From positions 7,254 to 71,253 of IMG/VR virus record IMGVR_UViG_3300031853_000023: DNA of 64,000 bases; one strand, given 5' to 3'. The position numbers and the translations under genes are program-made. Of this stretch, positions 14,006 through 14,910 are shown piece after piece. Position 1 is the stretch's first letter; every line of letters begins with the position of its first letter. The DNA is from a virus. Below the pieces are notes generated by a model. The model made no database searches. It was not told where the DNA came from and worked only from the letters and a program-made list of their open reading frames with translations.

Positions 14006-14596
14006 ATGGCAACAGAAAATTTAAAAACAATGAAAGAACAACTTATGAGTTGTGTTCAAGGTCAGTTAGGAGATATCTCAAGAGTAGATACTCATGAGCT
14101 TGGAGAAGCTATTGATATGATTAAAGATTTGGCAGAAGCTATTTATTATTGTACTATAACAGATTCAATGGAAAAAAGCGATGAAATTCAAAAAATGAAC
14201 TCTTCTACTATAAATTATTACACAGTTCCAATGAATCAAACATATCCCTATATGGATGATATGAGTGGGATGGATAGAACTAAAAGATATATGTATTATC
14301 CAGACAGCAGGAATGCTGCTTCTTCACCTTCTCAGACCGGCGGTCAATCAATGTATTATACCGAACCCGCAATGGAAGCAAGAAGAGACCCAAGATAGGG
14401 CACTGCTTATATGCGTCGTAGAATGTATATGGAAAGTAAAGAACAACATAGAGATGCAAATTCTCAAATGCGTGAATTAGAAGCATATTTACAGGAATTA
14501 TCTTCAGATATTACTGGAATGTTAAAAGATGCCTCCGCAGAAGAAAAGAATGTTCTTCGTCAAAAAATAACTACATTAGCAAGTAAAATACAATAA
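14006..14596 (+). CDS. Hypothetical protein (about 196 aa) with 1 in-frame TAG
   Basis: Track ORFs 14006..14398 and 14411..14596 share a frame and are joined by TAG at 14396..14398. RBS AAGGAGGAAAA. Confidence 0.45.
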
Positions 14597-14910
14597 TGTT
14601 TTTAATCAATAATGTATATTGGAAGTTAGCTTTTGTAGAACCAAATTATCCTCTTTTAATGAATTATAATGGAAATTATTCAATAGGAGCTTGTGATAAT
14701 TTAACGAGAACAATCTATATAAATAATACTTTAACAGGAAATCTTTTAAAAAAAGTATTATGTCATTAGCTAACTCATGCAGCAATGTTTTCTTATGGAG
14801 TTGTACTTTCTTTATAGCAATAGGAATTAGTAGCTGATTTAATCTCTACTTATGGAGATGAAATAATTTATATTACAAATAAAATATTTGTGCATTTAAC
14901 CAATGTATAA
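14596..14910 (+). CDS. Small protein (104 aa) with the motif VLCH-[TAG]-LTHAAM, i.e. a possible HExxH zinc-peptidase-like motif if TAG encodes Glu
   Basis: ATG at 14596 overlaps the upstream stop. In-frame TAG at 14767..14769, 14815..14817 and 14821..14823. TAA at 14908..14910. Confidence 0.35.

Follow-up and report, generated by a model that had tools for sequence, protein, structure and literature searches.

A 64,000-nucleotide stretch of the IMG/VR virus record IMGVR_UViG_3300031853_000023 (positions 7,254 to 71,253; this whole stretch is called the window below) contains an open reading frame (ORF), ORF 14596-14910, which encodes a small metallopeptidase-like protein with a TAG codon inside its HExxH motif. 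An initial annotation made from the DNA letters had located this TAG at the glutamate (Glu) position of the motif in a 104-residue protein, and the placement is exact, codon 58 lying in CH-[TAG]-LTH. This part of the translation reads ...KKVLCH-TAG-LTHAAMFSYGVVLSL-TAG-Q-TAG-ELVADL..., so that two more TAGs follow the first (Table 1). Both motif histidines, H57 and H61, are encoded by an ordinary CAT, and TAG occupies the Glu position between them; codon 74 is a Glu codon in the closest relatives. The ATG (14596-14598) shares one base with the TAA (14594-14596) of the preceding ORF (TAATG), and the gene sits in a conserved block of unannotated genes, after which comes a RuvC-like resolvase.

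Table 1. Layout of ORF 14596-14910 and its in-frame TAG codons.
Feature	Position	Strand	Evidence or context
ORF for a metallopeptidase-like protein of predicted zincin fold (HExxH), 104 residues	14596..14910	+	3 in-frame TAGs, TAA stop
Codons 57-61, CAT TAG CTA ACT CAT (H-[TAG]-L-T-H), HExxH motif	14764..14778	+	predicted active-site helix, residues 48-67 (AlphaFold2, AF2, model)
TAG, codon 58, catalytic-Glu position of HExxH	14767..14769	+	codon counts in 106 related loci
TAG, codon 74, column with a Glu plurality (E 40, D 14 of 94)	14815..14817	+	family alignment
Codons 76-77, TAG (14821-14823) then GAA; near-invariant EE pair	14821..14826	+	second helix, residues 73-84 (model)
TAA, true stop codon	14908..14910	+	all 50 tabulated window ORFs stop at TAA or TGA

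The 50 tabulated ORFs of the window contain 194 in-frame TAGs and stop at TAA (39 ORFs) or TGA (11 ORFs), never at TAG. Once TAG is read through, the longest ORF grows from 833 to 3149 codons, and one tail gene of 3142 codons holds 69 TAGs. Such in-frame TAGs in conserved genes, with only TAA and TGA as stops, are as expected for genetic code 15, in which TAG is glutamine (Gln). The GC content of the window is low (about 29%), and TAG makes up 19.6% of TAG+GAA+GAG in the structural block (1-30574) versus 5.4% in the replication block. A genuine or leaky stop at codon 58 would leave a 57-residue fragment, with the remainder as a pseudogene or as the product of rare read-through. The ORF is broken under the standard code and some database calls of family members finish after residues 72-76, at these TAGs; we nevertheless give this explanation next to no chance, because the TAGs of the window lie in otherwise intact long genes, protein-level conservation extends past each TAG in more than 100 loci, E76/E77 being near-invariant and the C-terminal half folding with confidence in the model, and suppressor tRNAs with a CUA anticodon are present in relatives.

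Family and fold of the 104-residue protein

An exhaustive profile search of the family gave 654 cluster representatives, mostly of about 100 residues, and we aligned 94 full-length sequences (93 representatives and the reference P0119). H57, E58, and H61 are each found in 93 of the 94 sequences, the sole exception at E58 being a gap, and the only other near-invariant acidic positions are E76 (83/94) and E77 (87/94). With the TAGs translated as X, the protein of the window gave weak matches to DUF6782, SprT-like, and M78 and matched phrog_1233 at 1.5e-8. Placing Glu at the three TAGs raised every profile score, e.g. from 17.1 to 24.1 bits for DUF6782 and from 35.2 to 46.5 bits for phrog_1233. 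Among 102 scanned family members, 43 matched DUF6782, 29 Peptidase_M78, and 12 SprT-like. On these profile scores, the protein is related to DUF6782, SprT-like, and Peptidase_M78 but is a member of none of them.

Among solved structures, the best relative of the broad family profile was selecase MJ1213 (E = 0.0018), followed by IrrE, both weak; a single-protein search gave chance matches only and the close-homolog profile gave none. We modelled the homolog P0119, which has a sense-coded HEITH, with AF2, and the best of five models reached a predicted local distance difference test (pLDDT) score of 94. Four strands are followed in this model by helix 48-67 carrying HExxH, helix 73-84, and helix 87-103. 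Foldseek placed PprI/IrrE first (probability 0.99), then selecase and anthrax lethal factor, and the zincins nearest to the modelled fold are IrrE/PprI, ArdC, minigluzincins, and SprT. Two of the features of the zincin superfamily are present, namely HExxH, provided that Glu stands at the TAG, and a mixed beta-sheet with an active-site helix and a following helix. The product of ORF 14596-14910 is, according to the model, a minimal (about 12 kDa) zincin-fold protein of its own phage family, in agreement with the initial annotation, which had described a minimal metallopeptidase-like protein and had allowed for the lack of a zincin fold.

The third metal ligand is likely to come from the E76/E77 pair, a candidate placed on helix 73-84 in the model; one of these two residues is also TAG-encoded in the window. 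We ruled out E88, which has an IrrE-like spacing, because its column is not conserved. Compared with known minimal zincins (the minigluzincins projannalysin and proabylysin, selecase MJ1213, IrrE/PprI-ImmA of M78, SprT/Wss1, and DUF6782), the phage family forms a separate group, phrog_1233, of unknown function and found in a virion-gene neighbourhood. Selecase and SprT possess a third His, whereas the phage family has none.

Codons opposite TAG in related phages

We compared the window with 80 IMG/VR loci (10-kb flanks around homologs), translated all TAA/TGA-delimited ORFs with TAG as X, aligned the translations, and tallied the codons opposite each TAG. For the HExxH-Glu codon itself, 106 related loci with DNA were available, in which it is GAA (68), GAG (23), or TAG (15), and in no case CAA or CAG; a single CAA match proved to be an unrelated ORF caught by the search pattern. 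It had been proposed in the initial annotation that this site could discriminate the inserted residue, Glu giving a canonical HExxH, and it does so, the column being invariant for Glu and devoid of Gln codons in the relatives. Codon 58 is TAG in 10 out of 10 closest assemblies. If TAG and GAA/GAG are synonymous and drift into one another, TAG would be expected at the catalytic site of a fraction of the homologs, and it is found there in about half of the closest ones. TAG occurs at ten columns of the small protein in the first 18 loci, seven of which are otherwise Glu, and never at the conserved Gln columns Q22 and Q75. It stands at E76 in many relatives and at E77 in L016 and L231.

The protein databases give a different picture, with Q at position 58 in 60 of the 104-residue homologs and E in 51. 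In ten assemblies that encode P0002, which is 92% identical, the codon behind this Q58 is a TAG, translated under code 15. In six further entries (P0152, P0178, P0205, P0219, P0253, and P0254), the match to the family profile stops at residues 72-76; P0152 is only 74 residues long and the other five continue with unrelated sequence, which suggests gene calls disturbed by the TAGs of codons 74 and 76. These disturbed calls, together with Q for TAG in other entries, imply a systematic mistranslation of this lineage in public protein sets.

The preference for Glu extends over the whole window. The majority partner of its TAG columns is Glu in 18 cases and Gln in 2, the background columns numbering 247 for E and 172 for Q (binomial p = 0.005), and the aligned cells opposite window TAGs number 357 for E and 21 for Q. 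A tabulation of consensus residues at conserved columns, as proposed in the initial annotation, gave 9 Glu and 0 Gln for the window TAGs at columns where relatives show 80% or higher conservation. In the ten closest assemblies, the codons that replace TAG at window TAG columns are GAA (10), GAG (1), CAA (1), and CAG (1).

When counted per genome, the TAG partner is bimodally distributed. Clade A, as we call the window together with about 30 loci, pairs TAG with Glu (E21/Q5 in L020, E21/Q2 in L036, E15/Q0 in L052), whereas about 30 other loci, hereafter clade B, pair it with Gln (Q27/E2 in L056, Q17/E1 in L095); many clade-B loci come from the human-gut sample 3300045988, and several further lineages of the phage family show no TAG recoding. 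At unique columns that are conserved in the other clades, taken as reference, clade-A TAGs face 24 Glu and 1 Gln (background 101 and 43), and clade-B TAGs face 24 Gln and 0 Glu (background 42 and 89), the difference between the conserved-column counts of the two clades being highly significant (Fisher p = 4e-13). A neighbour-joining tree of four neighbouring proteins recovers clade A as monophyletic and places the Gln-type and standard-code lineages in a sister group. Within families, the TAG count in clade A trades against the Glu count (slope -0.65) and hardly against the Gln count (-0.10); in clade B it trades weakly against Gln (-0.28) and hardly against Glu (-0.02).

Under code 15, the motif would be HQxxH and the protein would be catalytically dead, a scaffold or binding protein resembling zincins. 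This code is the sole TAG reassignment reported for phages (Borges et al., preprint; Peters et al., 2022), sister lineages within this phage family do read TAG as Gln, and public gene callers already give Q in these genes. Its hallmark of TAG on conserved Gln is, however, absent from the window and clade A and recovered only in the sister lineages, so the Gln default of the initial annotation holds for those lineages and is not supported for that of the window. With GAA or GAG at codon 58 in 91 relatives, an invariant E58, no TAG at Q22 or Q75 in the loci examined, the 24:1 and 0:24 ratios obtained by the same method in the two clades, and clade-A suppressors that lack the Gln-type G73 and unpaired 1:72 of clade B, we regard code 15 as very unlikely here.

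Comparisons with distant homologs gave mixed results. The two I-TevI positions at which TAG had been reported opposite Glu (ILE-E and E73) were reproduced in ORF 42251-42946, as was the single TAG opposite Lys in ORF 48707-49597. For the endolysin, where two Gln positions had been proposed, codon 76 does lie opposite Gln in two GH25 homologs of the PDB, in favour of code 15, but opposite Glu in two others, and the remaining three endolysin TAGs fall on variable columns of the GH25 structures. These distant columns (GH25 and I-TevI) are too variable to outweigh the evidence from close relatives.

Another residue able to substitute well for Glu (Asp, Lys, pyrrolysine, or a modified amino acid) is extremely unlikely. 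ARAGORN names the CUA tRNAs tRNA-Pyl, by their anticodon alone, and a few TAG columns are Lys or Asp. Nevertheless, the conserved columns are Glu in 24 cases, and the consensus in the 37 conserved TAG columns of clade A is Asp in 2 and Lys in 1, the latter well short of what pyrrolysine decoding calls for. No pyl genes, pylS and pylBCD included, were seen among the scanned ORFs, a subset drawn from the window and the flanks of tRNA genes, and the catalytic base of HExxH is specifically Glu.

Host inference with GTDB was set aside, the relatives being whole phage contigs in metagenome-assembled genomes of inconsistent taxa (Bacillota, Endomicrobiaceae, Succinatimonas, and Methanobrevibacter). 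The phage records of INPHARED contain only distant relatives (at most 61% identity), too distant to equate clade B with the published phAss-1 group, and that idea was dropped.

CUA tRNAs and the probable assignment of glutamate

Suppressor tRNAs were studied in several genomes each of clade A and clade B. Clade A has six distinct CUA tRNA sequences of three types. The anticodon arm, GGTCTCTAAAACC, is common to the CUA tRNAs of both clades and differs by one base from the tRNA-Trp arm GGTCTCCAAAACC. Outside this arm the two clades differ. In clade A, pair 1:72 is formed (C-G or G·U), position 73 is A, pair 11:24 is U:A, the D-loop has 11-13 nt, CCA is not encoded, and the D-arm varies by type. 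In clade B, U or C stands mismatched opposite U72, position 73 is G, pair 11:24 is C:G, the D-loop has 8-9 nt in the four tabulated tRNAs and 10 nt in L192 and L198, CCA is encoded, and the D-arm is GCGTAATGGTTAGCGC, like that of the phage tRNA-Gln(UUG). The clade-A genome L180 offers an internal comparison: its tRNA-Glu(UUC) and its suppressor both have A73 and an 11-nt D-loop, and its tRNA-Gln(UUG) has U1-A72, G73, and a 9-nt D-loop.

These positions correspond to known identity elements. The bacterial amidotransferase GatCAB accepts U1-A72 and turns tRNA-Glu away on account of G1-C72 and one additional base in the D-loop, U20B (PMC2811023), while determinants of glutamyl-tRNA synthetase (GluRS) include U11-A24 and the loss of nucleotide 47 (PMC9976931). 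The tRNA-Gln-like suppressor expected under code 15 is not found in clade-A relatives, given A73, the paired 1:72, and U11:A24. Type 2 suppressors (L046, L229, and L039) have a 4-nt variable loop, their best BLAST matches are annotated tRNA-Glu genes, and their top profile is tRNA-Glu (27.8 bits versus 15.2 for Gln). With small profiles, only type 2 could be resolved, types 1 and 3 being ambiguous. Isotyping by overall identity was uninformative, with all comparisons at about 0.7, because the Trp-like anticodon stem dominates. Inspection of the identity elements, as suggested in the initial annotation, thus showed that Gln-type features are absent from clade A and that likeness to tRNA-Glu is confined to type 2; taken together, the tRNA features are compatible with Glu, not decisive, and consistent with a putative charging route through GluRS.

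A suppressor that is partly amidated or doubly charged would insert a mixture of Glu and Gln and leave a fraction of the protein active. Many bacteria form Glu-tRNA(Gln) as a natural intermediate (PMC2811023), type 1 suppressors are not clearly of one isotype, and L020 (E21/Q5) and L046 (E4/Q3) illustrate the minority of clade-A TAGs that lie opposite Gln. Such ambiguous decoding is nevertheless improbable in view of the 24:1 ratio of Glu to Gln at conserved columns, of selection, which would disfavour a mixed product at invariant catalytic positions, and of the 1:72 pair and D-loop size, which are features that block GatCAB (PMC2811023).

Several points weigh against reading TAG as Glu or against an active zincin. 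The whole case for Glu is built on comparative sequence analysis. What this analysis shows are the positions of the TAGs, the conservation of the family, its fold, and a codon correspondence specific to Glu, for which clade B provides the reciprocal control with Gln. ARAGORN and Rfam found no tRNA and no other Rfam family in the 64-kb window, so its own suppressor was not seen; a look-up of the exact product of the window ORF 62201-63220, meant to lead past the window, gave no matching record. The commonest clade-A suppressor, type 1, has Met, Trp, Gln, and Asp as its best profiles, finds tRNA-Trp as its best BLAST matches, keeps a 5-nt variable loop, and does not look like a tRNA-Glu by overall similarity. 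In E. coli, GluRS has strong determinants in the anticodon (U34, U35, C36, and A37; PMC9976931); CUA differs at 34 and 36, and charging by a standard GluRS is therefore not self-evident. A minority of clade-A TAGs lie opposite Gln, Lys, Asp, or variable columns. The reciprocal test of clades A and B is partly circular, since the clades were first drawn from Glu/Gln counts; this choice has no bearing on the tree, the codon-58 data, or the counts made on the window only. Finally, even with Glu at the TAGs, no Pfam gathering threshold was reached (DUF6782 24.1 for a cut-off of 27, SprT-like 18.6 for 25.6, M78 18.4 for 22), and peptidase activity of the 104-residue protein, although likely, is a prediction, as is the third ligand.

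Weighing these points, we consider it very probable that TAG is a Glu sense codon in this lineage and that the motif is a real HExxH; that TAG is predominantly Glu is similarly probable. The catalytic E58 and E76, one of the two conserved downstream glutamates, would then be written as TAG. The codon would be used mainly in structural and late genes (the late timing is presumed), where it represents about 20% of the Glu codons, and would be read by a phage-encoded tRNA(CUA) that presumably lies beyond the window. A73, the stable 1:72 pair, U11-A24, and the enlarged D-loop would keep this tRNA off glutaminyl-tRNA synthetase (GlnRS) and away from amidation by GatCAB, and the same features could make the clade-A tRNA(CUA) a substrate of GluRS, the candidate charging enzyme. 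With Glu inserted, the protein would have a normal HExxH and be an ordinary, presumably active minimal zincin. Among the scanned window ORFs and tRNA-flanking ORFs, which cover part of the window ORFs and about half of each genome, there was no synthetase or release-factor gene.

Several additional features were seen among the tRNAs. Of 121 CUA tRNAs with the shared anticodon arm (IMG/VR loci L099-L218), 38 have G1-C72 and A73, ends that are not Gln-like, and some D-arms, such as GTCTA..AGGAC in L158 and TTCTA..AGGAA in L171, are of tRNA-Glu style or near it. Unrelated phages may also have TAG-to-Glu or other non-Gln assignments. ARAGORN called a tRNA with anticodon UUA (ochre-reading; L133, 2898-2972) and one with UCA (opal-reading; L039, 10668-10739) in two different clade-A genomes; given TAA and TGA as stops in the window, these may be mispredictions or extra suppressors. 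The type-1 suppressor core occurs in two tandem copies on one metagenome contig (L251, 9290-9401), and in the scanned metagenome collection the exact core is limited to 8 contigs. Clade-A tRNA arrays adjoin a conserved protein of about 500 residues with DUF2828 and DUF7788 (L229, 10511-12058; L184, 5551-7074; L145, 2034-3521; L168, 2430-3317), which we take to be TROVE/vWA-like. Some of the array flanks also encode a full sigma-70-family factor and a PD-(D/E)XK endonuclease.

Known reassignments and further features of the window

Stop-codon recoding in phages is already known; the new part would be the assignment of Glu to TAG. For phages with a code unlike that of the host, Borges et al. state that TAG-to-Gln and TGA-to-Trp were the only changes seen, and code 15 was confirmed by metaproteomics in crAss-like phages (Peters et al., 2022). 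The gut phage group phAss-1 (136 kb) is annotated as TAG-to-Gln, a jumbo-phage survey of 2026 assumes Q for TAG, and the known bacterial stop-codon changes all reassign UGA (Shulgina and Eddy). We found no report of TAG/UAG-to-Glu in phages or bacteria in the open-access literature searched. As in the crAss-like, Lak, and other gut phages of code 15, the TAGs of clade A are concentrated in structural and late genes, CUA tRNAs are phage-encoded, the stops TAA and TGA are retained, and lineages with recoding are intermingled with relatives that use the standard code. Clade A differs from these phages in the probable residue, Glu, and in suppressors whose A73, paired 1:72, and U11-A24 are not tRNA-Gln-like.

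Glutamate is assigned to UAA and UAG in the nuclear code of peritrich ciliates (NCBI table 30). The two systems share UAG as Glu, but the ciliate code is eukaryotic and nuclear and also reassigns UAA, whereas TAA is the main stop here (39/50 ORFs) and a bacteriophage presumably relies on the synthetases of its bacterial host. The E. coli amber suppressors supE (tRNA-Gln CUA) and su+7 (tRNA-Trp CUA) insert Gln through GlnRS. Like these, the phage tRNAs have an anticodon arm in which a one-base change gives CUA, as seen from its comparison with the Trp arm; unlike them, the clade-A tRNAs combine A73 with a first pair that is stable, and the codon evidence points to Glu.

Very probably, a monophyletic group of rumen and gut phages (about 130-145 kb) uses a code undescribed for prokaryotic viruses, TAG = Glu, with sister lineages using Gln or the standard code. 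TAG would have been captured twice in one phage family, each time for a different residue, the outcome being set by the acceptor and D-arm identity of the CUA tRNA. Current practice equates phage recoding with TAG-to-Gln or TGA-to-Trp/Gly, and gene callers hard-wire Q (code 15). If our interpretation is correct, all TAG-containing proteins of the lineage are mistranslated in public databases, catalytic residues included (HQxxH for HExxH), viruses of bacteria have a new natural genetic code, and the residue gained in amber capture is not fixed by the susceptibility of synthetases to Gln charging. The Glu and Gln clades, with their similar tRNAs, would form a natural pair for dissecting the routing between GluRS and GlnRS/GatCAB, and clade A might be a source of Glu-inserting amber suppressors for genetic-code engineering.

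The distribution of TAG along the window has local exceptions. Four conserved ORFs at 11977-13991 (+), inside the TAG-rich structural block, have no TAG and a GC content of 31-38%; two of them match PHROGs of unknown function (16490 and 20016), and they may be genes that need translation before or without the suppressor. Conversely, the almost TAG-free replication block contains four free-standing TAG-rich ORFs with 5-12 TAGs each (42251-42946, 48707-49597, 49979-50671, and 55822-56643, all +), of which two are GIY-YIG endonucleases, as judged by their match to I-TevI, and the other two resemble homing-endonuclease ORFs. A 478-residue ORF at 16444-17880 (-), which separates the RuvC-like gene from the tail genes rich in TAG, has 46% GC (about 29% for the genome) and lacks TAG. 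It matched no family, is missing from the arrangement of the closest relatives (L219), and looks recently acquired.

Two further loci of the window attracted attention by their domain content. The TAG-free protein of 831 residues encoded at 30758-33253 (+) matches the shoulder domain of the eukaryotic major vault protein (PF11978, E = 2.7e-20), with a weak vault repeat, a match that is unusual in a phage. At 33904-36634 (+), three of four consecutive ORFs resemble an RNA/tRNA repair set: ORF 33904-35133 resembles an RNA ligase and has an OB-fold domain (PHA02142), ORF 35583-36071 a kinase of the AAA_33/KTI12-like kind, and ORF 36092-36634 a phosphoesterase of the calcineurin-like kind. Such a set could be of importance to a phage relying on its own tRNAs.

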